From UHGV virus genome UHGV-0116702: a DNA stretch of 11,571 nucleotides; one strand, given 5' to 3'. Both the position numbers and the translations under genes were made by a program. Below are positions 1 through 11,571 of the stretch, one piece after another; within the stretch, counting starts at the first letter, position 1, and each line of letters begins with the position of its first letter. This DNA comes from a virus. Under the pieces are notes generated by a model. It did no database searches, was not told the DNA's origin, and saw only the letters and a program-made list of their open reading frames with translations.

Positions 1-57
1 CGAATAGCTTCACTGTGTGGACGTGCTGCATGAACCGGGCGGCTGTCTAAAATCATC

Positions 58-1720
58 AAGGTCTAAATACACTATGAGGATGATTAGGGGTTGGTAGATG
101 ATTCGGATGAAGCATCCTCATTACAAGACCAACTATAGAACTACCTGTTAATAACAGGACAATATCAGGTGAATCCCTATTCAATTTAAAGGCATTTTCC
201 CAAGTATCTAAGCAGTTTTACACAGATTCTATGCAGTATCGGTATAGTCTCTTTTTACCCTAACTTATTGAAATATATAGAGAATCTGTGAAGTCTCTTT
301 TCAGGGAACTATGCAGGGTGTTAGTCGTTCCTCTCTCGACCCTTAGAAAAGTGCTATATACAGGACTATATAACGCTATTCATGCAGTTGGTCACCATAT
401 GTTACAGTTGCAAGAGATAACAATCAGCTATGTGAAAGTTAGGAAGTGATGGTTACAGTTGATTCGGTTAGTTCTAGGAATCAACCTCATAGTTCCTTCG
501 TAGTTCCTCTTAAAAAATCACTTACAGACACCTTAATATCTATACAGATTTCATGTAGAACACGATTAGTGCGTAAAACAGCTATTATGTTAAAAACGCA
601 CTGTATACGTATCAGTACTGATTTATAAGGGTTTTGTGTATTGGATGATAAGAGGCTATGCAGCACCTTGAGAGCATGTCTTCTAAGTCATTGATACATA
701 AGGTCACAGAAGTTTGTGTCTGTTACAGAGAAAACTGGATAGGATTTCACAGAACTATAAAATGTTACAGCTATTGATAGGTTAAATCTTCTTGATAGAT
801 GCTTTGAAGTGTGGTGAAGGTTTCTTGAGGTGGAGCTAAACAGATGCTATGAAGAAAGTCAATGATATTTTAACTGCTTTTGCAAAGGGGGTGCTATATC
901 GTGAATCTGGGGTACTTAACAGCCATCAATTGAGTGTAGATATTTTTTAAGATTATCGGTGAAGGGGAATGTAGAGGGGGGTACTACGATTTTTATAAAA
1001 ATTTTCAGACTCTGAAAAGTTGCTGTACAGATTTTGCACAATCTTACCAAGCCTCATAGAAAGCTCTGTAGCGAGTTTTAACCCCATTTTTAGGGGTAAC
1101 CTGTAGGTATGTACCACCCACCTTAAAATAAAGGGGTAAAATCGCTTAGAATGCGTTACAGAGCGTCTGAGAAGCTATATTCACAGATTTTACTAAAACC
1201 TCAGACTTTCTAAGTGGTCTTTTTAACAGGAGGGGTTCCCCTATGGTCACATATCCCCTCTCTCGCTTAGTGAGCTACACAGACCTAGAGAACATGCTCT
1301 GTAACGCCTTCACAAACATTGACTAAGGTCAACTTCATAAACTCAGAGTTAAGTTACCTTGAAAGATTCTACCAAGAAACTACACAGGTATTATTTAGTC
1401 TGACTGTGAAGAGATGTTTAACGGGAGGAAGAGAACCATGAAAACCGAAGGTAGGTTCTATCTTAACAGTGACTGTAAGAGATACCTGAAAAGATACTTA
1501 ACAGAACTACCAAGAAGAGAGGGAACGATAAAACCAGAGGTAGTGACCTTGTTAAGTAGGTCGTTTCAAAGTCTCTTAAAAGTCTGTTAAGTAAGGGCTA
1601 TGTGAACAATCTTACCATTTTGTCAATGCTTTTGTCTTTGACCTAAATCAATAAAATGTATCGTTTGATGTGCTTTTAAACAAAATAGCTAAAAAATCTT
1701 TTTAGAGGGGCGCTTCGCTT
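58..1720. other. ORF-poor, motif-dense non-coding region (candidate ori / ncRNA / regulatory hub)
   Basis: The six-frame track shows only one 60-aa ORF in 1.66 kb, and it has no RBS. Region contains the conserved box copies at 1063-1075, 1145-1171 and 1296-1308, recurring CTGTGAAGAG and TTACAG/TTAACAG motifs, and a 17-bp perfect palindrome TTTTCAGACTCTGAAAA at about 1003-1019. Confidence 0.5.
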
Positions 1721-2389
1721 GTGTCACATCCAATAATCCATATCGGTCGTTATCATGGTGGTTCTGATGACTGGCGTACACCGTATCGTCTATTTCATAA
1801 CCTGCATCGTGAGTATAGCTTCAGTCTAGATGGTGCTGCAACTGAGCATGACGCATTGTTGCCACGGTTCACCGATGATATTCACAATCAATCATGGGTT
1901 GGTGAACGGGTCTTCGTTAACCCGCCGTTTAGCATGGCTGAACAGTTCCTCCTAAAAGCCCCTGAAGCTGATGTGTGTGTATGTCTGGTTCCGCACAGGT
2001 CAAAGACAACTTACTGGCTTCGGTGTGTATATACAAACCCCTTCCTGCATGAGATTCGAACGTTACACCGAGCGGTTAAATACCTTCCACCAGCAGGAAA
2101 GAGAGGTGTTGTAGCGCGTTCACCGTTTGCAAGTTGCGTTCTGATATACAGGAACACACCCCGTAAACCGAAGGTTGAAGTTACCCAGACAATCTATTGT
2201 GGCGACACAATGCTTTTACTTGCCGTGGTTAACAGGGGTGGTTTACGTGGAAGACCTCATATACACGATGCACAGACGCTTGACAGGTTGATTAAAATGC
2301 ATGACCAAGGGCAATCCATCAAGAGCATCGCAGAATCGCTAAGAATGCCTCTAAGCACCACTTACAGGATTGTTCAAAGGTTGGGCTGA
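1721..2389 (+). CDS. Phage-type N6-adenine DNA methyltransferase (Dam-like) fused to a C-terminal resolvase/invertase-type HTH domain
   Basis: 222-aa ORF with GTG start 10 nt after a GAGGGG Shine-Dalgarno. N-terminal ~155 aa carry DWRTP, LDGAA and the WVGERVFVNPPF motif with the catalytic NPPF tetrapeptide, typical of the small phage Dam family. C-terminal ~60 aa (GRPHIHDAQTLDRLIKMHDQGQSIKSIAESLRMPLSTTYRIV) match the GRP arm plus helix-turn-helix pattern of Hin/resolvase DNA-binding domains. Confidence 0.7.
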   Translation: MSHPIIHIGRYHGGSDDWRTPYRLFHNLHREYSFSLDGAATEHDALLPRFTDDIHNQSWVGERVFVNPPFSMAEQFLLKAPEADVCVCLVPHRSKTTYWLRCVYTNPFLHEIRTLHRAVKYLPPAGKRGVVARSPFASCVLIYRNTPRKPKVEVTQTIYCGDTMLLLAVVNRGGLRGRPHIHDAQTLDRLIKMHDQGQSIKSIAESLRMPLSTTYRIVQRLG

Positions 2390-2428
2390 AATTCTCATAT
2401 AGAGCACTGATTACGAGAATGTTAAAGA

Positions 2429-2462
2429 GGCGATTTCCCCTTTCTGGGGTTATTCGCTTTTT
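2429..2462 (+). terminator. Candidate intrinsic terminator downstream of the methyltransferase gene
   Basis: GGCGATTTCCCCTTTCTGGGGTTATTCGC: nested stems GCGA/TCGC and CCCC/GGGG, followed by TTTTT at 2458-2462. Confidence 0.4.
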
Positions 2463-2597
2463 ACTGGAAGGGTTATTTTACAGAGGTTTTTCAAACCCCC
2501 TCAATAATAGAAACGAGCAACAAACGAAGAGCGAGAAATAAAATATTGAGACTGGTGAACGGGGTCTGTAAAGATTGTTTAAGGGGGCAGTTAAGAA

Positions 2598-2630
2598 GGT
2601 GGCTCTCCCTTTCTGGGGTTATCGCCTTGT
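2598..2630 (+). repeat. Second, degenerate copy of the CCTTTCTGGGGTTAT hairpin motif
   Basis: GGCTCTCCCTTTCTGGGGTTATCGCC shares an ~18-nt core with the hairpin at 2429-2462 but has a weaker T-tract (CTTGTATCTT). Confidence 0.35.
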
Positions 2631-2654
2631 ATCTTAGTGAGTCCAGGAAGTTCT

Positions 2655-2835
2655 CTGTGAAGAGTCTTGTCAGTCCTTTATATTGGGTGATTACAACTCA
2701 TTGAAAAATAAGTGTTTTTAGAATTTACTGTTAAGGTTACAGAGTTAACTGTGAAGAGACTTGTCAGTTCTCTATATATGGCTAATTACAACTAATTGAA
2801 AAATAAGAACTTTTAGAAATTACTGTCAGAGAGGT
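2655..2835. repeat. Two tandem ~94-bp direct repeats (about 85% identity over ~75 bp)
   Basis: Copy 1 starts CTGTGAAGAGTCTTGTCAGTCC at 2655; copy 2 starts CTGTGAAGAGACTTGTCAGTTC at 2749. Both contain ATTACAACT, ATTGAAAAATAAG and TTTTAGAA-TTACTGT. The CTGTGAAGAG head also occurs at 1403-1412 and in variant form at 286-295 and 1468-1477. Confidence 0.6.
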
Positions 2836-2946
2836 GAATACTTGATAGATACAGCTTTCCGGTTCTGTCAAGCTATTTTTTCATAGATAGCACAAAATGC
2901 TAAAGATACCCCTATACCATCTCGTACAGGGGATTTTGGAGGGAGT

Positions 2947-3123
2947 TTAACGGGGGTCTGTGTGGTCATTATCCTTAAGGTCAAGCGTCCATGTATGACC
3001 GAACAGTTTAAAGACAACAAGCACTCTGACAAGGACGTAACGAAGTAGCAGACCTGCAATAAGTCCAATACCTCCACCAGCCCATACATCAGGTGACCCC
3101 AGTTCAGGAGGGAGATTTACCAT
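2947..3123 (-). CDS. Hypothetical small membrane protein (58 aa, one predicted TM helix)
   Basis: ATG at 3123-3121 preceded by AAGGA with 6-nt spacing on the minus strand. Product MVNLPPELGSPDVWAGGGIGLIAGLLLRYVLVRVLVVFKLF... has a glycine-rich hydrophobic stretch. The track ORF 2947-3165 is the same frame extended to a TTG. Divergent from the 3421 operon. Confidence 0.3.
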   Translation of the reverse strand: MVNLPPELGSPDVWAGGGIGLIAGLLLRYVLVRVLVVFKLFGHTWTLDLKDNDHTDPR

Positions 3124-3136
3124 TAGTTTTCCTTGT

Positions 3137-3235
3137 AAGACGCTCTCAATCGCATTCTGACACAAAAAGTACCTGACCTTATGAGTTGACCTTAAGAGGC
3201 TGTTTAACTCGTTACAGAGCGATTGAAGAGGTCTG
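3137..3235. repeat. Inverted-repeat-bracketed element, copy 1 (conserved left and right arms, divergent interior)
   Basis: Left arm AGACGCTCTCAATCGCATTCT (3138-3158); right arm CTGTTTAACTCGTTACAGAGCGATTGAAGAGGTCTG (3200-3235). Arms are imperfect reverse complements sharing GCGATTGAG and GTCTG. Interior contains a doubled TGACCTTA. Confidence 0.55.
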
Positions 3236-3341
3236 TGTGCAATGCAATAACCATGTGACCACTCTCATAGCCACGCCTTTATATTTTACTCTCCCCATAG
3301 AACCATTATACCATAGATGTTAATAAATTGTTAAAAAATGC

Positions 3342-3370
3342 TTGACATTAGTCTTTGAAACTGCTAGTAT
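3342..3370 (+). promoter_or_regulatory. Candidate sigma70-type promoter for the 3421-4658 operon
   Basis: TTGACA (3342-3347), 17-nt spacer, TAGTAT (3365-3370); A/T-rich upstream tract TTAAAAAATG; about 50 nt upstream of the ATG at 3421. Confidence 0.45.
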
Positions 3371-3420
3371 TGTACATATAAGTTAACAGAGAATTAACAA
3401 TTATAAGGACTAGCTTATGA

Positions 3421-3900
3421 ATGAACGACAGAGAATTTAGAGCGATGCTTCAGGCATCAAGAGAACGCAAAGGCATTGACGAAGTAATTCGGGCAATTAC
3501 ACCGAGGAGTCGTTATATGCCAACCAGAAAGAGCACCCAGAACACTATTAAAAATTATTTGGCTAACTTCGACAGCTACGAGCAACTACCAAGTAAGCTT
3601 GATGATATTTTCATTGGATTCTGTAGAAGTGAAGGCCACCCGAAATACAACAAAAAACTATTTTATCTTCTAAAGAATCTTGACGAAATTAACTCAGCTA
3701 CCGTGACAAATTATCTTCAGCGACAAGCAACCAGACTTAGTTATGAATTACCAAGCGATAAATATTGTGCATTGCTTGCTGTAATGTGTGCAAAGCTAAT
3801 TGGTATTGTTGAACATCATATTGCCGTTGGTAATATTGAGCCAATGGAAAACGAGCAACCAGACTTTGAGTTTGACCCGTATATTTTGGAGGAATTTTAA
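3421..3900 (+). CDS. Hypothetical protein (159 aa) with acidic C-terminal tail
   Basis: ATG with AAGGA SD about 11 nt upstream; first gene after the candidate promoter; ends ...ENEQPDFEFDPYILEEF. No family recognised by eye. Confidence 0.6.
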   Translation: MNDREFRAMLQASRERKGIDEVIRAITPRSRYMPTRKSTQNTIKNYLANFDSYEQLPSKLDDIFIGFCRSEGHPKYNKKLFYLLKNLDEINSATVTNYLQRQATRLSYELPSDKYCALLAVMCAKLIGIVEHHIAVGNIEPMENEQPDFEFDPYILEEF

Positions 3901-3901
3901 A

Positions 3902-4183
3902 ATGAAAAACAAACACACATTAACCCGCATTTCAGAGGAAGCTTTTAACGAGCTTACCAGAATTAAACGAGCTACTAACTTGCCTCATCAAACTGTAATG
4001 CAGCTTGCAATTGCTAAAGAGGTTACTGAGTCGGATTTACTGAAATATCCAGTCTCTAAAGGTCGTAAACACATCCGAATTAGTCAGGACGCTTTAGCTA
4101 CTTTGAAGGCGCTTAACGGCTTTAAGATTGATATTGCCCGTCTATTGAGTCTTAAAATTCACAAGCTGTCTCTGGAGGTCTGA
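3902..4183 (+). CDS. Hypothetical small protein (93 aa), possibly DNA-binding
   Basis: ATG at 3902 lies 1 nt after the upstream stop, with GGAGGA about 12 nt upstream. Preferred over the track's TTG start at 3800, which overlaps the upstream gene. Two internally similar segments (TLTRISEEAFNELTRIK / KHIRISQDALATLKAL) suggest a repeated motif; the DNA-binding idea is speculative. Confidence 0.55.
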   Translation: MKNKHTLTRISEEAFNELTRIKRATNLPHQTVMQLAIAKEVTESDLLKYPVSKGRKHIRISQDALATLKALNGFKIDIARLLSLKIHKLSLEV

Positions 4184-4185
4184 TT

Positions 4186-4458
4186 ATGAAGCAATGGCGA
4201 GATGATATTAAACGGTTCTTTGCAACTTACTTCATGATTAATTACGAAACAGGAATGCTTGAATGGATTGATGGTGGAGAGGTTAAGACAAGAGATGACG
4301 CTTACGGTAATCCAATGATTCGTTATGGCACTCGTGATTATTATGTGAAATATGTCATCTGGTTTTTGCATCATGAAGTTCAGGCAACTAAAAAAATTAT
4401 CTTCAGGGATGGTAATAAAAGAAATTGCCACCCAAACAATTTACTACTGGAGATTTAA
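4186..4458 (+). CDS. HNH_3-family (homing-endonuclease-like) small protein, possibly catalytically degenerate
   Basis: 90 aa; ATG 8 nt after GGAGG and 3 nt after the upstream stop. C-terminal YYVKYVIWFLHHEVQATKKIIFRDGNKRNCHPNNL matches the HNH_3 pattern (YYVHRLV...VxHIDGNKxNNxxxNL), but by my manual alignment the HID histidine is Phe (IIFRDGNK). Confidence 0.55.
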   Translation: MKQWRDDIKRFFATYFMINYETGMLEWIDGGEVKTRDDAYGNPMIRYGTRDYYVKYVIWFLHHEVQATKKIIFRDGNKRNCHPNNLLLEI

Positions 4459-4658
4459 TGCTATGTATTAAATTCGAATATTTGACAGATAAAATGATTA
4501 AGCATGTATCAGACCTGCTCATCAAAGAAGATGGTTTCGGTGATGTTTGCAATCCAAAAGATATCTTCATTCACGCCACCAGCCCAAATGAAACACTGAA
4601 AACAGCAGTTACAGCGGAATGGTTTGAACGAAATAAAGTAGAATTAGGCTATTGGTAG
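4458..4658 (+). CDS. Hypothetical protein (66 aa)
   Basis: ATG overlaps the upstream stop (TAATG) with GGAG 5 nt upstream, indicating translational coupling. Track ORF 4425-4658 is the same frame from a TTG inside the HNH gene. Confidence 0.5.
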   Translation: MLCIKFEYLTDKMIKHVSDLLIKEDGFGDVCNPKDIFIHATSPNETLKTAVTAEWFERNKVELGYW

Positions 4659-4692
4659 TCCGAGACTTTAAGAGAAATTAGAAAAACAGCTT

Positions 4693-4816
4693 CTCAGACG
4701 CTCTCAATCGCATTCTAACGCAAAAAACTATCTTATTTTAGGGTGGGTAATACCACTGTACAGGCTACCCCTGAAAAAGACTGTTTAGCTCGTTACAGAG
4801 CGATTGAGGAGGTCTG
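4693..4816. repeat. Inverted-repeat-bracketed element, copy 2
   Basis: Left arm CAGACGCTCTCAATCGCATTCT (4695-4716); right arm CTGTTTAGCTCGTTACAGAGCGATTGAGGAGGTCTG (4781-4816). Arms are nearly identical to copy 1 (right arm 35/37) while the interior differs in sequence and length. Ends 22 nt before the ATG at 4838. Confidence 0.55.
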
Positions 4817-4837
4817 GTAAAAAGGAGATTTTAGGAA

Positions 4838-5161
4838 ATGAACAATTACGAATTACAGATTTTCGTTGATAGCGACACCGCTATGATGATTCAGGCTTTC
4901 ACTGATGTAGGTGTTAGCATTGACTTTGACAGGCTGTTAAGGCTAATGGCTGATAACTCAGAAACAATTGAAGATTTTATTCAGTCGGTGGAGTTTAACG
5001 AGCCTCGAATGATGCTACCAATTAAAGACAGCAACATGAAAAGATTGGTTATCGAGCAAACGAACAAATTCAGCATTAGCCCTGAAAGATATCTCAAGGC
5101 AGCTATAGCAATTTTGTACGCTGACAATATTCTGGTGACGGATTCTGTGAGGATTCACTAA
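4838..5161 (+). CDS. Hypothetical protein (107 aa)
   Basis: ATG 9 nt after AAAAAGGAG SD; no recognisable motif. Confidence 0.6.
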   Translation: MNNYELQIFVDSDTAMMIQAFTDVGVSIDFDRLLRLMADNSETIEDFIQSVEFNEPRMMLPIKDSNMKRLVIEQTNKFSISPERYLKAAIAILYADNILVTDSVRIH

Positions 5162-5238
5162 TGGGTTTAATAATTGCTTGGGCGTTGCTTGGCTTATTTG
5201 TTGGTTGCTGGGTAGGTAACACAGTAAATAAGAATTGA
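5161..5238 (+). CDS. Candidate 25-aa hydrophobic microprotein (MGLIIAWALLGLFVGCWVGNTVNKN)
   Basis: ATG overlaps the stop of the 107-aa gene (TAATG). Sequence is almost entirely one TM-like helix with a polar C-terminus. Too short for the ORF track; support is overlap geometry and composition only. Confidence 0.3.
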   Translation: MGLIIAWALLGLFVGCWVGNTVNKN

Positions 5239-5262
5239 TGTTACCAATCTGTTAAAAAGCTG

Positions 5263-5291
5263 TTGACAAATAACCTTGAGCATGACATAAT
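5263..5291 (+). promoter_or_regulatory. Candidate sigma70-type promoter
   Basis: TTGACA (5263-5268), 17-nt spacer, CATAAT (5286-5291). The track's 67-aa ORF 5263-5466 begins inside this -35 hexamer. Confidence 0.4.
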
Positions 5292-5481
5292 TGTATATAT
5301 GAGGATAGTCTTCTATCCGAAGTCTATGAGGAGAGCAATTCTCTCTTATTTTCTTTCAATAATCCGATGGATGGATATTCTGAGTTGGAAAGGTGCAATG
5401 CTTTTCGTCATGGCCTTTCAGTTTAGTCTGAGAGGCTATCTCAAAAAGTGCTTAATCATTCATTGAACCCTTTACAGCTTT

Positions 5482-5510
5482 GCCCTAACTCATGATTAGG
5501 GCTTTCTTTA
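5482..5510 (+). terminator. Candidate intrinsic terminator
   Basis: GCCCTAA-CTCATGA-TTAGGGC perfect 7-bp stem followed by TTTCTTTA. Confidence 0.45.
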
Positions 5511-5579
5511 AGAGTTTTTAAACAGAGCTTTTAAAGAAAGTTTTTCCTGAAACTTCGTTAACGTTAAAGCAAACCTTCA

Positions 5580-5613
5580 AAGCCCTTCACAGATTATGTT
5601 TAGGGCTTTTCTT
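5580..5613 (+). terminator. Second candidate terminator hairpin (related stem)
   Basis: AAGCCCT - 15-nt loop - AGGGCTT followed by TTTCTT; shares the AGGGCTTT(T)CTT tail with the hairpin at 5482-5510. Confidence 0.4.
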
Positions 5614-5708
5614 AATAGAGCATCTTTAATAAATCGTTAAGTCATCTTCTAAGTGTATTGGCGTTGAAGGTGCTCTATTAAGAAATAACCACTTAGAGGA
5701 AAATTATA

Positions 5709-6419
5709 ATGACAAACGATTTATATATTAACGGTAAAAAGGTTGATAGCTTCGGTGACTGGTCGCCACAGACTGAACATCCAGCTATCACTATCCAGCG
5801 TAAAGAACATGATGAAAGAATTGCACTTGAGCAAGAAATCCGAATGTCACCAAAGGTAATTACCTTTGTAGCTCCTGAGCCTCAAGAGATGCCTGATATT
5901 TGCAAAACTCAAGCATTACTTGAGCTTGAGCGTGAATATTACCCACTGCTGAAAGCACAAAGAATTAAACTTGATATTGCTTACGACAATGTGAAGAACT
6001 TTGAAGAGACTGAAAAGCCAACTGATTTTGATATTGAAGTGGAAATTAGACAAAACCCATTCGTATATTACTCAGTTGAGGATAATGATGGTTTTGGTAC
6101 AGCAAGAGAGAATATCTCAAAAGTTCTTCAAAACATCCCTGAAGGATTCCGTTTAATTGATGTTAGACCAGCTTCACGCGGTACAGGTTCATATATTTTA
6201 CTGTCTGATAAAACAGATGAAGAGATTTGTCAGTTAGCTGAAAAGAATCTACTTGAGCGTCATAGCAAAAAATTAAACAGATTTAAGCAAGAACTTGCTA
6301 ACCAGCTTCAGGCTATGAAAGACCTTATTTCTGCATATGAAACGCAGAAGAAGGTTGCTATGCAGGCTGATATTGAGCAGTTAGTGAAGATTTCTCAGAA
6401 ATACGCAAAGGCACTTTGA
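5709..6419 (+). CDS. Hypothetical protein (236 aa), acidic with helical C-terminal region
   Basis: ATG about 10 nt after AGAGGA SD; long uninterrupted ORF; no family recognised by eye. Confidence 0.65.
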   Translation: MTNDLYINGKKVDSFGDWSPQTEHPAITIQRKEHDERIALEQEIRMSPKVITFVAPEPQEMPDICKTQALLELEREYYPLLKAQRIKLDIAYDNVKNFEETEKPTDFDIEVEIRQNPFVYYSVEDNDGFGTARENISKVLQNIPEGFRLIDVRPASRGTGSYILLSDKTDEEICQLAEKNLLERHSKKLNRFKQELANQLQAMKDLISAYETQKKVAMQADIEQLVKISQKYAKAL

Positions 6420-6444
6420 CTATGAATTAAAAAGGAGGTGATGA

Positions 6445-6648
6445 ATGTTTGATTTAACGGAACGCTATGAACTTATTAAAGCAATTAGCGAGAGATTGAA
6501 AGAACAACCCAACAAACCAAAACGAATCAAATCATCCACCTCTAAACAAAATAACAGAATCAGAAAAATTGCTAAATGGTGTCTGGATAGATTACCAAGT
6601 GATTGTCAGATTGTCGGTGAAGATGGCAATTATTATCTGATTAGGTAA
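6445..6648 (+). CDS. Hypothetical small basic protein (67 aa)
   Basis: ATG 5 nt after AAAAAGGAGG SD; lysine/arginine-rich centre (KPKRIKSSTSKQNNRIRKIAKW). Confidence 0.55.
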   Translation: MFDLTERYELIKAISERLKEQPNKPKRIKSSTSKQNNRIRKIAKWCLDRLPSDCQIVGEDGNYYLIR

Positions 6649-6673
6649 AGAATTGGTTGGGTGAAAATCTACG

Positions 6674-6714
6674 GGAGAGATTATCGAGTGACATCGGTAG
6701 TTTCTCCTTTTTTT
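6674..6714 (+). terminator. Candidate intrinsic terminator
   Basis: GGAGAGA (6674-6680) pairs with TTTCTCC (6701-6707) with one G-U pair, then T7 (6708-6714). The 20-nt loop is long, so confidence is moderate. Confidence 0.4.
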
Positions 6715-6736
6715 GTATGTGTGCTACATGAAATCT

Positions 6737-6787
6737 GTAAAGCTAATATCCACACTGAAAAATAGAATTTACGTAGCTCACGCTTAA
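6737..6787 (+). repeat. Direct repeat A (51 bp, 38-bp perfect core) immediately upstream of the tape-measure gene
   Basis: GTAAAGCTAATATCCACACTGAAAAATAGAATTTACGTAGCTCACGCTTAA. Core 6750-6787 is identical to 9024-9061. Contains a -10-like TAGAAT with no good -35. Confidence 0.8.
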
Positions 6788-6804
6788 AGAGGTGAAAAAT
6801 ATGA

Positions 6805-8985
6805 ATGAGCAAATTCACAGTTGATAGTTTTATCGTTGAACTAGGCTTCAATGAAAACGTTATTAAGGGCTTGCAAAGAGTTGAAAAGGCAGCTTTGCAG
6901 TCAGCACAAAGAATTGAACGTAATTTGAATAGAGCGTTTAAGGTCGATACCAAGCAACTTGACAGCAACCTGACAAGTTCTTTAGGGCAACTTGAAAGGA
7001 AGTTTAATAAGACCTTTGACAAGATTGAACAGAGAGCAAGAAATACTAAAGCTTTCCAGTTTACCACCAGATTTAATGACACTGTTAATCCTCCAAAACA
7101 ACCGAGACAGCCACGAATTAGCGGCAACAGAGCAATCACAGCAGCGCATAGCGTGAATATGTCTAAGCTTGGTGATATTAATCCGCTGATGGCTAAAATG
7201 TTTAAAGCACAGTATTACAGCTTAAGCGGTAAGGCTGGTAATATTGGAAGTGAAAAGTTTAACGCTGAACTTGCAAAATTAAATCAATCTCTTCGTGAAA
7301 CGTTGAATAAACTCAGGTCACAGACAAAGACCACCAGCATTAACAATACAAGCGACGCATTTAATAATCTTGCAAGCAATGCAATCAAGTTATCTGGTGC
7401 ATTTTACTCTGTGATGGGTGCTCTTAACGCTTACAAGGCCATTATGAATGCAGGTCTTAAACGAGATTCCGCACAGAGAGCCGCTAAGTTTGTACTTGGT
7501 GATAAAGCATCTGAAGCTGAGGTATTTATTCGAAATTTAGCAGACAAGACAGGTCTTAATATCTCTGAAGGGCTATCAAGCTACGCTAAGTTTGCAGCAG
7601 GTGCTCAGGGTTCTATGTCACAGGAACAGACACAGGAGCTATTTGGTAATGCAACGGCTATGAGTCGCTTAATGGGGCTTTCTAACGATGAGCTAAACGG
7701 CATTTTGAAAGCATTTGAGCAGATGGCGAGCAAGGGCAAGATTCAGGCTGAAGAGCTTCGTGGACAGTTAGGTGACCGTATGGCTGGTGCATTTAAGCTA
7801 TTCGCTGAAGCATTGGGTATGACTGCTACAGAGCTTGATAAAGCGATGAAAGACGGGAAGATTTTAAGTAGTGATACTCTCCCTAAAGTCGCTAAACAGA
7901 TGGGCTTGATGATTGATAAAGCGGGTGGCTGGGCTGAAGTCGCTAAGAGCACTCAGACAGCTTTAGGGAAACTGGCTAACAACTGGGATGATACGATGGT
8001 GAAAATCTTCTCAGGTTCACAGGATGAGCTAAACGGCTTCTTATCCAGCCTGAGTAACCTGCTTAGTGAAATGGGGATGAGTTCATCTATCGCTGGTGAT
8101 GCTATCGGTGGACTTATCGACATGCTTAAAGCTGGTGTGGATGACATCCGTATCTTTAACAATCACCTTGAAGGCTGGATTCTACAGACTAAGAAGTTCT
8201 ATTACAGCCTTGATGACACTAAACGAAAACTACTTGATGAAGTCGGTGATGGTTTTATCAACTTCGTCAAAGGTCTTGCTATAGCGTTATCTGCAAAGAC
8301 ACTATTCAGTGCTGCTACAGGGGTTATAAACCTGACAAGAGCAATCACAACGTTAGGTACAAGAGCTAATCAGGTTGCTGGTCAGGTAGCTACTGGTAAA
8401 GGTGGTGGAAAACTGAAAGGTGTAGCTGGTGGTGTAGGTAGTGCTCTTGCAATTGGTTATGCTGATGACGGTTATGAAACAGCGTTAGCATTAGCTTCAA
8501 TGATTCCACAAATCAGAGGCGTCACTCTTGGTTTATATGCATTGAAGAAAGCACTGGATTTTATGAATCAGGAAGTAGTCAAAAACGCTAATATGCATCC
8601 ATCTGGGGTAGGTGTGGGTAGTGACTTTAATCCCGTGTATTCTGGTGACCCTAATAAACCGAATATGATTAACGAAGGATGGGGTAGAATTTTTAGTTCA
8701 ATGGGTGAATTGTTTAACAATGCCACAATGAATATTGCAAGATTCAATCATCCAGAGTTAAACAACATTAAGCAAGATTCAGCATTAACGAGTGCAGATA
8801 TTCAGAGTCTGAGGGATGAAATCTCTGCTTTAAGTAAGCGTATTCAGGAGCCTGTGAAAGTTTCCTTGGGTGGTGAAGTTGCCATTAAACCAGATGAAAC
8901 CAGCTTTATGACCTTTAGCAGTAATATCTACGACCAATATGCAGAAGCTACGCTATTAAGTTCATCATTCCCAGAAGATGATTGA
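6805..8985 (+). CDS. Phage tail tape-measure-domain protein (726 aa)
   Basis: N-terminal coiled-coil-like segment, then LNGILKAFEQMASKGKIQAEELRGQLGDRMAGAFKLFAEALGMTATELDKAMKDGKILSSDTLPKVAKQMG, which matches the conserved tape-measure core. Downstream there are glycine-rich hydrophobic stretches (ATGKGGGKLKGVAGGVGSALAIGYA). SD AAGAGG is about 13 nt upstream. Confidence 0.7.
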   Translation: MSKFTVDSFIVELGFNENVIKGLQRVEKAALQSAQRIERNLNRAFKVDTKQLDSNLTSSLGQLERKFNKTFDKIEQRARNTKAFQFTTRFNDTVNPPKQPRQPRISGNRAITAAHSVNMSKLGDINPLMAKMFKAQYYSLSGKAGNIGSEKFNAELAKLNQSLRETLNKLRSQTKTTSINNTSDAFNNLASNAIKLSGAFYSVMGALNAYKAIMNAGLKRDSAQRAAKFVLGDKASEAEVFIRNLADKTGLNISEGLSSYAKFAAGAQGSMSQEQTQELFGNATAMSRLMGLSNDELNGILKAFEQMASKGKIQAEELRGQLGDRMAGAFKLFAEALGMTATELDKAMKDGKILSSDTLPKVAKQMGLMIDKAGGWAEVAKSTQTALGKLANNWDDTMVKIFSGSQDELNGFLSSLSNLLSEMGMSSSIAGDAIGGLIDMLKAGVDDIRIFNNHLEGWILQTKKFYYSLDDTKRKLLDEVGDGFINFVKGLAIALSAKTLFSAATGVINLTRAITTLGTRANQVAGQVATGKGGGKLKGVAGGVGSALAIGYADDGYETALALASMIPQIRGVTLGLYALKKALDFMNQEVVKNANMHPSGVGVGSDFNPVYSGDPNKPNMINEGWGRIFSSMGELFNNATMNIARFNHPELNNIKQDSALTSADIQSLRDEISALSKRIQEPVKVSLGGEVAIKPDETSFMTFSSNIYDQYAEATLLSSSFPEDD

Positions 8986-9010
8986 TTTAACGGTGTTCTA
9001 CGTGAATAAA

Positions 9011-9061
9011 GCAAAGTTAATACCCACACTGAAAAATAGAATTTACGTAGCTCACGCTTAA
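9011..9061 (+). repeat. Direct repeat B (copy of repeat A) immediately downstream of the tape-measure gene
   Basis: GCAAAGTTAATACCCACACTGAAAAATAGAATTTACGTAGCTCACGCTTAA; 48/51 identical to 6737-6787, offset 2274 bp; lies about 80 nt upstream of the ATG at 9142. Confidence 0.8.
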
Positions 9062-9141
9062 CAGAGAAAATACTTATATATCAAAGGCTTGGTTAAAAAT
9101 GATTAAAATACACTAAGCCTTTGAAATCAAAGGAGAATTTA

Positions 9142-9930
9142 ATGATTTTTAGCAATCAAATCCGCTACAGTGGCAAAGATGGCGTTTACTTCCACTTAAG
9201 AGATAATGTAGATGCCTTCTTAACCTTATCAGCAACTGAGAACATGGAATTTGATAGCCCTATGCAGGTGACTACACAGAACATGCAATCAGGGCAAACC
9301 GTCACAGATAATGTGCAAAGAGCACCCAGAACAATCACTATTAGCGGTGTCGTTGTAGTTGGCTATGAAGGGAGCTTATTATTAACTCGTCAGGGTCAAT
9401 TAGTAGAGAACTTCATCGACACTCTTGAAAACTGGCGTGACCAGAAACAAATTATTTCGGTCATCTGTAAAGACGGAATTAAAATTGATGATTCCATTAT
9501 CACAAGTTTTAAAGCCTCTAAAGATGTTGGAATTTCAAACGGATTAAGAATCCAACTAACTTTTCAGGAAATTAACTTCAGAGCTGTTGTGGGGCAGACT
9601 GATATCTCGGCTGCAACTGGAAAAGCCGCGACTACGAACGATGGTGGTGTGACCAGTAAGAAGAATGCAGGTAACGTGACCACTGAACGCAATAACGCGC
9701 CTATGCTATCGTGCAAAGAGCTAATGAGTATTAGCGATGTATCCGGTTACGCTCCAGCTATCAGAAATGATATTCTCGATGCTCAGATTAAGTGTAATAA
9801 GGCTTGGAAGCTGGACTATTCAGACTTAACAGAAGCTGAAAAAACCAACGTCACCAATGCTAATAGTAACGCTGGTCGGGTAGCTTCAAAGCTTAAAAAG
9901 TACTCAGTGAACCCTCACAAAAAATACTAA
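9142..9930 (+). CDS. Hypothetical protein (262 aa); possibly tail-associated on positional grounds only
   Basis: ATG 6 nt after AAGGAG SD; the track ORF from 9121 is the same frame from an upstream TTG. Sits directly after the tape-measure gene, where siphophages usually encode the distal tail protein, but I see no diagnostic motif. Confidence 0.55.
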
Positions 9931-11450
9931 ATCTCTACTACATCAACATCTATTAAACCCCTCTCAGTGACTTCAGAAAGCGACTGTATAGCCTCTGTAA
10001 CGTCCTCTGAGGGGTTTTCTGTTATTGATAAGGTGATTGACTTACCATTGTGAAAAGTTACTTTACAGCGACGTTTAGCAGTATTTAAAACGACCTCTTT
10101 AACAGCACTTTTGATTATCAGTTGTGCTTCAATTCTCCCCGCCTTTGTAGTCAAGTCACAATCAGACAAACACCCCACATCAATAGATTTAAGGCGTTGT
10201 GTCTCCTTCTCGATATCCGCATCAACCTGTGATAGCTCACCTTTTAACTGCTTTAGTTTGATGGTAATAGCTGACAAATCTTCAATTTCAAGTGATAGCT
10301 GTACCAGCTTTTCAATATTGCTTGAGATGTGTTCACGGTGTAGCCTCAACATATCTATGGTATTCGTCGTATCGCTATCAAATCGGTCAAGACGAGATAG
10401 CAGAGTAAGCAATGTACCATCGGTTTGCTTACGTGAAAGTCCTTTAGCACTACAACGGTTTTCATTACGAAGAGGACAACGATAAATCCCGTTTCTTGTA
10501 TCACTAAAGCCTGTGATAATCAGAGCATGACCACATTCAGAACAACGGATAACACCTTTAAAGAGATTCACACTCAATGGTTTATCTGAAACAGACCTCT
10601 TTCCATAACGAGAATGTGATAGTTGTTGAACTTTGTAGAATGTTGTTTCATCTATAATTGCAGGATAATAACCAGCTATCTCCTCACAGCCTTTAGGTGT
10701 GAAGTAACCAATTACAGAGCGATTCTTCAGAAGGTCTTGTACTGAGGTTTGACCAAACTTACCAGCTTTATATTGGTTAAGCGTCTGGTGACCTTCATCA
10801 TTAAGAGTCCTGACAATCGCCCAGATAGATTTGCCCTCTAACCGTAGCTGAAAGCACCTCTTCACAGTTTCTACCTTCTCAGGTATTACAGAGAAGCTTT
10901 TACGGTCATCATTCAGCCTTAACCATGCAGGACAACGCCTAGAAATCTTGATACCAGCTTTAGCAGCTTCTTTCTTTGCATCCCATGCAGCTTGTATACG
11001 CTCAGCCTTACGTAATGATTCCTCATGCGCCCTTTGCATTATCAGAATGCTTTTAATCAGGGATAACGGGTCTCTTAAGCTTTCCTTTGTGTAATGTTCA
11101 CCATCGGACAAGGTGACTACATCTACACCAGAGCGAAGAATGTTTCGTAATAGCTCACTTGCTCGGTCTACGGCCTGACGTGACAAACGGTCTAAACTCT
11201 CGATTAGTAGTGTATCACCAGCTTTAACAAGCCCTTTCTCGATAGCGGTTAAAAAGTCACCTAAGCCACCTTTCAAGTGCTTACCAGTGAATCCACTCAC
11301 ACCTAAATCACGGAAGGATAAATCTTGGTCAAGGTAGTACTCAGGTTGAGCCTTAAGCCAGTCATTAACCATCTTAGACTGTCTGCGTAGTGAATCACCT
11401 CGGGATTGCTTCTCAGATGAAAACCTGATGTAAGAAATGGCACGTTTCAT
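9927..11450 (-). CDS. Large serine recombinase (integrase, 507 aa)
   Basis: N-terminal resolvase-type catalytic domain with the nucleophile motif YIRFSSEKQ and arginines in DRLSR; central recombinase region; Cys-rich zinc ribbon CSECGH...[11 protein letters not shown]; C-terminal coiled-coil-like segment. GAGGTG SD 4 nt before the ATG. Confidence 0.9.
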
Positions 11451-11476
11451 TGTTCACCTCAAAACTGATGCCCTAG

Positions 11477-11505
11477 ATTGTATCGTTTTAGATGGTGTAT
11501 TTAAA
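11477..11505 (-). promoter_or_regulatory. Candidate promoter for the recombinase gene
   Basis: On the minus strand: TTTAAA, 17-nt spacer, TACAAT, about 25 nt upstream of the recombinase ATG. The -35 is weak. Confidence 0.3.
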
Positions 11506-11571
11506 CGTGTCTAATAAAAATCACCCGATTAACGCCGCGCTGATGTAAACCGCGATTAAGCGTTTGTTCCT

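Follow-up and report, generated by a model that had tools for sequence, protein, structure and literature searches.

We analysed a stretch of 11,571 nucleotides of viral DNA (UHGV virus genome UHGV-0116702; hereafter the window), which consists of an island of ∼11.5 kb (about 49–11516) inserted in yecE of E. coli, a site that is empty and contiguous in other strains. One gene of this island, at 1721–2389, encodes a small Dam-family adenine methylase joined to a DNA-binding domain of the Hin/resolvase type, and a 28-bp imperfect palindrome begins 3 nt past its stop codon. The linkage of this palindrome to the fusion gene is new in this analysis. We give roughly even odds (a probability of about 0.5) to the reading that the protein is an active orphan adenine methylase which is recruited or regulated through its helix-turn-helix (HTH) domain at its own palindrome, marking the DNA of the island. 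The features concerned are listed here by their position in the window.

1721–2389, + strand: coding sequence of the methylase–HTH fusion; 222 aa, GTG start, TGA stop; homologues of 220–222 aa
1763–2152, + strand: Dam-family (PF05869) N6-adenine methylase domain, residues 15–144
1829–1840, + strand: D-G-A-A, residues 37–40, the conserved DxAA motif in an alignment of 23 family members
1919–1930, + strand: N-P-P-F catalytic motif (motif IV), residues 67–70; N67, P68 and P69 invariant family-wide
2249–2257, + strand: G-R-P arm, residues 177–179, of the minor-groove arm type of Hin/resolvase domains
2249–2383, + strand: HTH_7-type three-helix DNA-binding domain (Pfam residues 177–217; AlphaFold2 model)
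2392–2419: 28-bp imperfect palindrome, TTCTCATAT-agagcactga-TTACGAGAA (9+10+9), candidate cognate site of the HTH domain
1722–2477, + strand: present/absent cassette, comprising the gene and 88 bp downstream, defined by alignment with the methylase-less sister islands L084 and L085

A methylase domain joined to a resolvase-type domain

The first-pass annotation, made from the letters of the DNA alone, had described 1721–2389 as a Dam-family domain fused to a Hin/resolvase-type GRP-HTH domain, and this fusion proved to be real and conserved. Both domains scored above their Pfam cut-offs: PF05869 (Dam) with 50.4 bits against a curated cut-off of 28.1 over residues 15–144, and PF02796 (HTH_7) with 25.3 bits against 23.8 over residues 177–217, within the C-terminal region for which such a match had been predicted. 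In an AlphaFold2 model built with 11 homologues (mean predicted local distance difference test score, pLDDT, of 82.5), the alpha/beta core of the methylase extends beyond the Pfam domain to residue 171 (nt 2233). C-terminal to this Dam core lie a beta-hairpin, the GRP arm and the HTH, whose three helices span residues 184–195, 200–207 and 211–221, with LSTTYRIVQRL as the recognition helix. The pLDDT was low at residues 176–180, as expected of a flexible GRP arm, and only ∼5 residues link the last core strand to this arm. The modelled order of a GRP arm followed by a three-helix bundle supports HTH_7 membership, the score margin of which is small, and Foldseek gave weaker agreement. M.TaqI and the type I HsdM subunits, which are structural neighbours, both need large separate recognition domains; the fusion has no such domain. 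No solved structure of the methylase family was detectable by sequence, and the HTH gave weak matches only (Cbp1, Sin and Sleeping Beauty).

The fusion protein matched PHROG 111 ('DNA methyltransferase') and was classed by PADLOC as an orphan methyltransferase. The equivalog model TIGR01712 (phage_N6A_met) gave 38.3 bits against a cut-off of 97.05, over residues 15–82 only, and we assign the fusion to PF05869 and not to the TIGR01712 equivalog. A Pfam search found no PF00239 serine-recombinase catalytic domain in the protein, and no neighbouring nuclease moves with the cassette. A restriction–modification pairing with the small HNH gene of the island was ruled out, that gene also being present in methylase-less islands. 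By its domain content and surroundings, the fusion is classed as neither a serine recombinase nor part of a restriction–modification system. The non-specific methylases Hia5/Hin1523 were likewise ruled out as closest relatives; in these, a DPPY motif precedes FxGxG and the recognition region is divergent, which places them in a different family.

The residues that are invariant across 23 family members (W18, P21, F25, F34, D37, W59 and N67-P68-P69) are all kept in the fusion. D37 forms part of the DxAA motif, which precedes NPP[FY], has A39 and A40 conserved in at least 90% of the members and is presumed to bind S-adenosylmethionine. Retention of all the family-invariant residues suggests that the methylase is catalytically competent; we take it to be an orphan N6-adenine methyltransferase. 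Towards the C-terminus, NRGGLRGRP and the recognition helix were invariant or nearly so in an alignment of 15 E. coli-group proteins; in distant homologues G177 was invariant and R178 and P179 were nearly invariant. Pairwise ratios of nonsynonymous to synonymous substitution rates (dN/dS) between E. coli alleles were 0.10–0.26 for codons 2–171 and 0.22–0.28 for codons 172–222, with dS at ∼1–2, near saturation, between the two E. coli allele groups; these ratios place both domains under purifying selection.

A large protein collection contained 556 relatives, the best 120 of which came from E. coli, Shigella or E. albertii and were nearly all 220–222 aa long at 68–92% identity. Among representatives at 50% identity, full-length fusions continued down to ∼42% identity; below this level only the methylase part was found, mostly in proteins of 140–200 aa. 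Full-length fusions at 36–56% identity occur in other Enterobacterales genera, and species-representative genomes yielded the full-length gene in Winslowiella iniecta, Pseudocitrobacter vendiensis, Erwinia typographi, Pantoea piersonii and one metagenome-assembled genome (MAG). Of 5426 complete E. coli genomes, 213 had the gene. A search of 50,697 phage records, where the Dam domain matched alone, gave no fusion, and neither did IMG/VR contigs, where the more than 390 relatives all had the methylase part only. Database annotations already list the two domains together. An origin by recent frameshift, which had been raised as an alternative in the first-pass annotation, is refuted by the length kept in more than 100 protein clusters at 68–92% identity and in the other genera, together with the dN/dS range of 0.10–0.28.

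One copy, in E. coli O145 RM9154-C1 (L002, 3272–3938), is split into open reading frames (ORFs) of 109 and 30 aa with an IS3 element 560 bp downstream, and is an example of cassette decay. In P. piersonii (L008, ∼9931–10060) and the MAG L009, the conserved N-terminus has no in-frame ATG, GTG or TTG. In the Pantoea homologue a perfect AAGGAG precedes an in-frame ATC by 6 nt, a hint that the gene uses an unusual start codon or is in decay.

A palindrome linked to the gene

The palindrome at 2392–2419, with half-sites of the form xTCTCATAA and a 10-bp spacer, is the sole copy in the whole window. In the second E. coli allele group the DNA downstream of the gene is unrelated, yet the left and right arms are found at the identical distance (TTCTCATAA-atatggtcat-TTACAAGAC). 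The half-site with N10 spacing also lies next to the gene in L092, L005 and L007; it occurs 52 nt past the stop codon in L092 and ∼15–18 nt past it in Winslowiella and Erwinia, and the metagenomic contig L004 has the palindrome twice after its fusion gene. Where the gene belongs to Pantoea (L008) or to the MAG L009, the palindrome lies upstream of the coding sequence, at 11–38 nt in Pantoea. These two loci were the only ones with an upstream site, the palindrome being 3′ of the stop codon in nine of the ten lineages examined. Across six lineages the arms agreed at 77% pairwise identity, compared with 29% in the spacer and 37% in the flanks, and the spacer contained no invariant adenine.

When up to two mismatches were allowed, 1.15 Mb of unrelated loci gave no match to the palindrome pattern, and every match within 149 kb of E. 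coli loci stood beside the fusion gene. The methylase-less islands examined were without it. The perfect palindrome had 18 matches in IMG/VR, approximately the number estimated by chance, none of them near a methylase or a resolvase. The island looks like a satellite of Felix O1-type lytic phages, similar to PLE, the Vibrio cholerae satellite of the lytic myovirus ICP1. Phage garuso, an 85.8-kb Felixounavirus (L093 and L094), had no copy of the palindrome at up to three mismatches, which ruled out the palindrome as a target on the presumed helper phage.

A conserved RNA hairpin or terminator was also ruled out. Predicted hairpin energies ranged from −2.9 to −15 kcal/mol and the second E. coli allele does not fold in this way; in L090, a separate canonical terminator lies downstream of the palindrome. 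Because the mismatches in the arms are uncompensated, the hairpins weak or absent and a U-tract lacking, we read the palindrome as a putative protein-binding site on DNA rather than as an RNA element.

The half-sites were found to vary together with the recognition helix. Homologues with the helix xS(T/S)x(Y/G/H)R have half-sites of the form xTC(T/C)CATWA, and those with the helix xRT(V/L)(Q/R)R (L006, L090 and L091; class B) have xCGCCATWA with equal geometry, the outer bases being CGCC or GGCC in place of TCTC or TCCC. Such covariation is as predicted for a cognate pair of helix and site. In the DNA complexes of Hin and of gamma-delta/Tn3 resolvase, each half-site takes up the G-R arm in the minor groove of its inner, A/T-rich part and helix 3 in the major groove of its outer part; res site I is 28 bp long and has a 9-bp TGTCYNNTA element at either end. 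The palindrome has a 9+10+9 layout with A/T-rich inner positions (CATWA), and its half-site TCTCATAA fits the Tn3/gamma-delta consensus TGTCYNNTA at seven of nine positions.

The same half-site matches GTCTCAWAA, which forms res-like clusters in front of small resolvase genes in two sister islands. These genes (L085, 7480–8216; L086, 8700–9439) encode resolvase-type serine recombinases of 183–184 aa, and the clusters, lying at most ∼140 nt upstream, combine half-sites separated by 8 and 13 nt with two single ones. Because such clusters precede the sister-island resolvase genes, a recombinase origin is pointed to for both the HTH domain and the palindrome; the HTH of the fusion and those of the resolvases are only ∼30% identical.

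Proposed role and competing explanations

We noted that the sequence GATC is absent from the window, where ∼41 occurrences would be expected from composition, and from phage garuso. Its absence from the genus Felixounavirus has been reported (PMC5477317, PMC4690856). The DNA to be protected or regulated therefore offers no targets to a GATC-specific Dam, and a classical role of this kind is unlikely for the fusion. Because both the island and its presumed helper phage are without GATC, the target of the methylase would be a different one, and the name 'Dam' is probably a poor guide to its specificity. Of the 22 six-base palindromes missing from phage garuso, 21 are missing from the island too (the exception is ATGCAT); on this count, the island is subject to the pressure to avoid restriction that acts on a transmissible phage genome. 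Given this shared pressure, an extra protective methylase would fit the life style of the island.

We propose that a small phage-type Dam methylase permanently acquired a serine-recombinase DNA-binding module, made up of the GRP arm and the three-helix HTH. This module would bind the 28-bp palindrome, most likely as two copies, with the recognition helix reading the outer major groove and the arm reading the inner A/T-rich minor groove. The enzyme would thereby be recruited to the DNA molecule that encodes it, or have its expression adjusted there, or both. Since the site lies just 3′ of the coding sequence and the C-terminal HTH is made last, capture of the new protein in cis would be possible. 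The DNA of the island itself would thus be methylated preferentially, at a non-GATC motif, and the most economical role would be an extra protection or marking of island DNA during movement between cells. In most lineages the palindrome comes directly after the coding sequence, which is why we favour recruitment onto the encoding DNA over promoter–operator autoregulation.

A stronger version, which we regard as doubtful, is that the fusion is a natural counterpart of the engineered DamID system, with newly made protein loaded in cis onto the satellite DNA and marking the satellite preferentially. If this were true, satellite DNA would be epigenetically distinct from the DNA of helper phage and host, which could provide restriction protection or self-recognition during helper infection, and recruitment in cis would supply a natural precedent for tethered methylation in which a mobile element marks only its own DNA. 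Orphan phage methylases are common, but little is understood of the way in which enzymes this small select their DNA. Here a minimal methylase is joined to a well-understood DNA-binding module, and the comparison points to a specific 28-bp site and to a second, covarying class of sites.

Several observations weigh against the proposed recruitment. A site 3′ of a gene is an unusual location for an operator, and a single tether does not by itself account for methylation across an 11-kb element. Upstream of the fusion gene there was no recognisable sigma-70-like promoter, and the HTH_7 score clears its Pfam cut-off only narrowly. The covariation of helix and half-site may represent a single evolutionary event, and some class-B palindromes (L006 and L091) could double as terminator stems. 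The palindrome consensus was partly derived from loci that were also used to assess it; independent support comes from L008/L009, L092 and the class-B loci. In addition, the island can do without the function of the gene: of the 5426 complete E. coli genomes, 520 have the left-arm segment that directly precedes it, compared with 213 for the gene, and ∼59% of these 520 are without the gene.

Promoter–operator autoregulation remains the main rival. The protein would then be a bifunctional methylase and regulator of the M.SsoII/M.Ecl18kI kind, with an intrinsic short specificity exercised genome-wide and an HTH that acts only as a transcription factor (a repressor, roadblock or insulator) and has no say in where methylation occurs. 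We consider this possible, at odds well short of even. The single-domain relatives evidently work without an HTH, each island has a single palindrome site, and the upstream position of the palindrome in Pantoea is that of a classical operator. However, the site is 3′ of the stop codon, and not at the promoter, in all but one of the lineages. For the second E. coli allele group, the distance from the centre of the palindrome to the next predicted transcription start downstream is ∼125 nt; in the window, the sole promoter match close to the palindrome is a weak one on the minus strand, at 2504–2475.

It is improbable, in our judgement, that the HTH serves as a target-recognition domain, such that only adenines in or beside the palindrome are methylated and a local epigenetic switch acts on adjacent repeats or an origin. 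The short linker agrees with this idea, since resolvase-like binding would put the catalytic domain over the 10-bp spacer, as does the absence from the fusion of the separate recognition domains on which M.TaqI and HsdM depend. The gene also lies beside repeats (the 95-nt tandem repeat at 2655–2826; iteron-like repeats in Erwinia L007). The spacer, however, is not conserved and has no invariant adenine, the HTH-less relatives are presumably active enzymes, and keeping a whole enzyme to modify one site would be costly.

The first-pass annotation had suggested that the fusion could target methylation to specific sites, possibly the repeated boxes of the island. Direction to specific DNA is still plausible, but the boxes did not hold up as the targets, and we think it very unlikely that the HTH directs methylation or regulation to GTTACAGAG, CTGTGAAG or CCCTYTCTGGGGTTATCGC. 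In their favour, the boxes are far denser in the island than outside it (GTTACAGAG: 0.62/kb, compared with 0.02/kb in the phage and none in the E. coli flanks), and TTACAG-like motifs are also found near the gene in Pantoea and Erwinia. Against this, GTTACAGAG, CTGTGAAG and CTGGGGTTAT have a similar density in sister islands without the gene (L084 and L085) and are scarce in some islands with it (L086 has no TTACAGAG), and the boxes are unlike the gene-linked half-site. As a candidate target, the 28-bp palindrome is the better one.

Slighter still is the chance that the small serine resolvases of the sister islands use the palindrome for recombination or regulation, the HTH of the fusion being a leftover that competes there or modulates cassette movement. 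The agreement of TCTCATAA with the clusters of L085/L086 and with the resolvase consensus, the resemblance of the layout to res site I and the presence or absence of the gene as a cassette would fit, but the palindrome lies inside the cassette and not at its ends, no small resolvase accompanies the palindrome in the window or in many other islands, and the HTH identity is low. Finally, we attach almost no weight to an inactive methylase domain (leaving a DNA-binding protein only) or to a recent frameshift or annotation artefact: the low and partial TIGR01712 match and the broken RM9154-C1 copy are outweighed by the retention of all family-invariant residues, including NPP[FY] and DxAA, by the dN/dS of the methylase domain and by a length conserved in hundreds of sequences across genera.

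The island and related systems

The other genes of the island for which a type was assigned are given below; several further genes had no family match.

9927–11450, − strand: large serine recombinase, 507 aa, the island's true recombinase
6805–8985: tape-measure gene
9121–9930: Dit-like tail gene, with up to 95% nucleotide identity to Felixounavirus phages
4186–4458: small HNH gene, 90 aa

Related islands (including L001, L002 and L084–L089) were found at three chromosomal sites: yecE, yciI-tonB and ymdF-wrbA. The GC content of the island is 39.6%, like that of the phage, and that of the cassette is 47%. L084 and L085 retain the flanks of the cassette without ∼1722–2477, and the cassette is bounded by similar short motifs, TTAGAGGGGCGCTTCGC on the left and TAAAGAGGCGATTTCCC on the right. 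The island that holds the fusion gene in Pseudocitrobacter also has a tape-measure gene and an HNH gene, together with tyrosine integrases, and in L092 the fusion gene lies beside a resolvase and a tape-measure gene; because of these contexts, the gene seems tied to this kind of island and not to one type of integrase. No description of the island family or of the fusion was found in the literature searched, and the term 'satellite' in PMC5885020 has a different meaning that is not relevant to the island. The fusion gene thus flags an apparently undescribed island family, present in about one tenth of complete E. coli genomes, which copies Felix O1-type lytic phages in its tail genes, base composition and restriction-site avoidance.

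The left part of the island (141–1720 and 2420–3420, ∼2.6 kb) has no ORF longer than 73 aa and is dense in repeated boxes: CGTTACAGAGCG (at least five copies, in both orientations), ACTGTGAAGAG and TACTTAACAGA. Islands that lack the methylase have these boxes too. A stem-loop-like unit, GAGGCGATTTCCCCTTTCTGGGGTTATTCGC, occurs in two copies (2421–2453 and 2590–2622), with the 95-nt tandem repeat following. Rfam and tRNA scans of the window gave no matches. This repeat-dense region could be a replication origin or a set of non-coding RNAs. In Erwinia typographi (L007, ∼10730–10850), five iteron-like repeats, GGTGTATTA-N5-TGATACAGG, come after the fusion gene and palindrome and may mark the replication origin of that island. 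A strong pair of divergent sigma-70-like promoters lies at 3305–3370, with TTGACA-17-TAGTAT (+) towards the gene at 3421 and TTAACA-18-TATAAT (−) facing a 72-aa ORF (2947–3165, in the minus-strand stretch 2868–3165) that has a hydrophobic segment; a terminator-like hairpin is at 2932–2909.

A 69-nt direct repeat, 87% identical, stands upstream of the tape-measure gene (6719–6787) and of the Dit-like gene (8993–9061). It contains TGAAAAATAGAATTTAC, a related motif being found at ∼2702 and ∼2797, and could be a helper-dependent promoter or regulatory element. The 236-aa protein encoded at 5709–6419 had no Pfam, PHROG or PADLOC match; its homologues in L086 (14425–15135), L087 (14231–14941) and L089 (14283–14990) are labelled 'transposase' in RefSeq.

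Among known systems, the catalytic domain is that of the small phage Dam family (PF05869; TIGR01712), which includes the Dam enzymes of phages HP1, T1 and VT2-Sa. Both have DxAA then NPP[FY] within ∼150 aa and no separate target-recognition domain, and in both the enzyme is an orphan on a mobile element. The fusion differs in the added beta-hairpin, GRP arm and HTH, unseen in phage or IMG/VR relatives, in falling below the TIGR01712 cut-off and in the unlikelihood that GATC is its relevant target. With the DNA-binding domains of the serine recombinases (Hin, Gin, Tn3/gamma-delta resolvase and Sin) it shares the GRP arm, the three-helix HTH and an S-T-x-Y-R recognition helix, and its putative site is likewise an imperfect palindrome with A/T-rich inner half-sites and the 28-bp length of res site I. 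Unlike these enzymes, the fusion has no recombinase catalytic domain and cannot recombine, and there is one site per element instead of a res or hix pair.

Joins between methylases and HTH regions are already known from the SsoII type. M.SsoII, M.Ecl18kI, M.EcoRII and M.MspI are C5-cytosine methylases of restriction–modification systems with an N-terminal HTH region and an operator in the promoter. As in these proteins, one polypeptide combines a DNA methylase with an HTH for a palindrome near its own gene, binding being predicted in the case of the fusion. In contrast, the fusion is an orphan N6-adenine enzyme with a C-terminal, apparently recombinase-derived domain, and its site is usually 3′ of the gene; a position that could overlap the gene's own promoter, as in the SsoII type, is seen only in Pantoea L008/L009.

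PLE resembles the island in being compact, chromosomal and equipped with a large serine recombinase and helper-derived sequences; its helper is a lytic myovirus, as is presumed for the island. No shared genes were detected between the two; the island has tape-measure and Dit-like tail genes, and its dependence on a helper is presumed. In DamID, the GATC-specific Dam of E. coli is fused by engineering to a DNA-binding protein and is expected to show a preference for methylating DNA within a few kb of the tether. DamID proteins and the fusion described here both consist of a small adenine methylase and a sequence-specific DNA-binding domain; DamID is synthetic and GATC-specific, whereas for the natural fusion tethered methylation is hypothetical.

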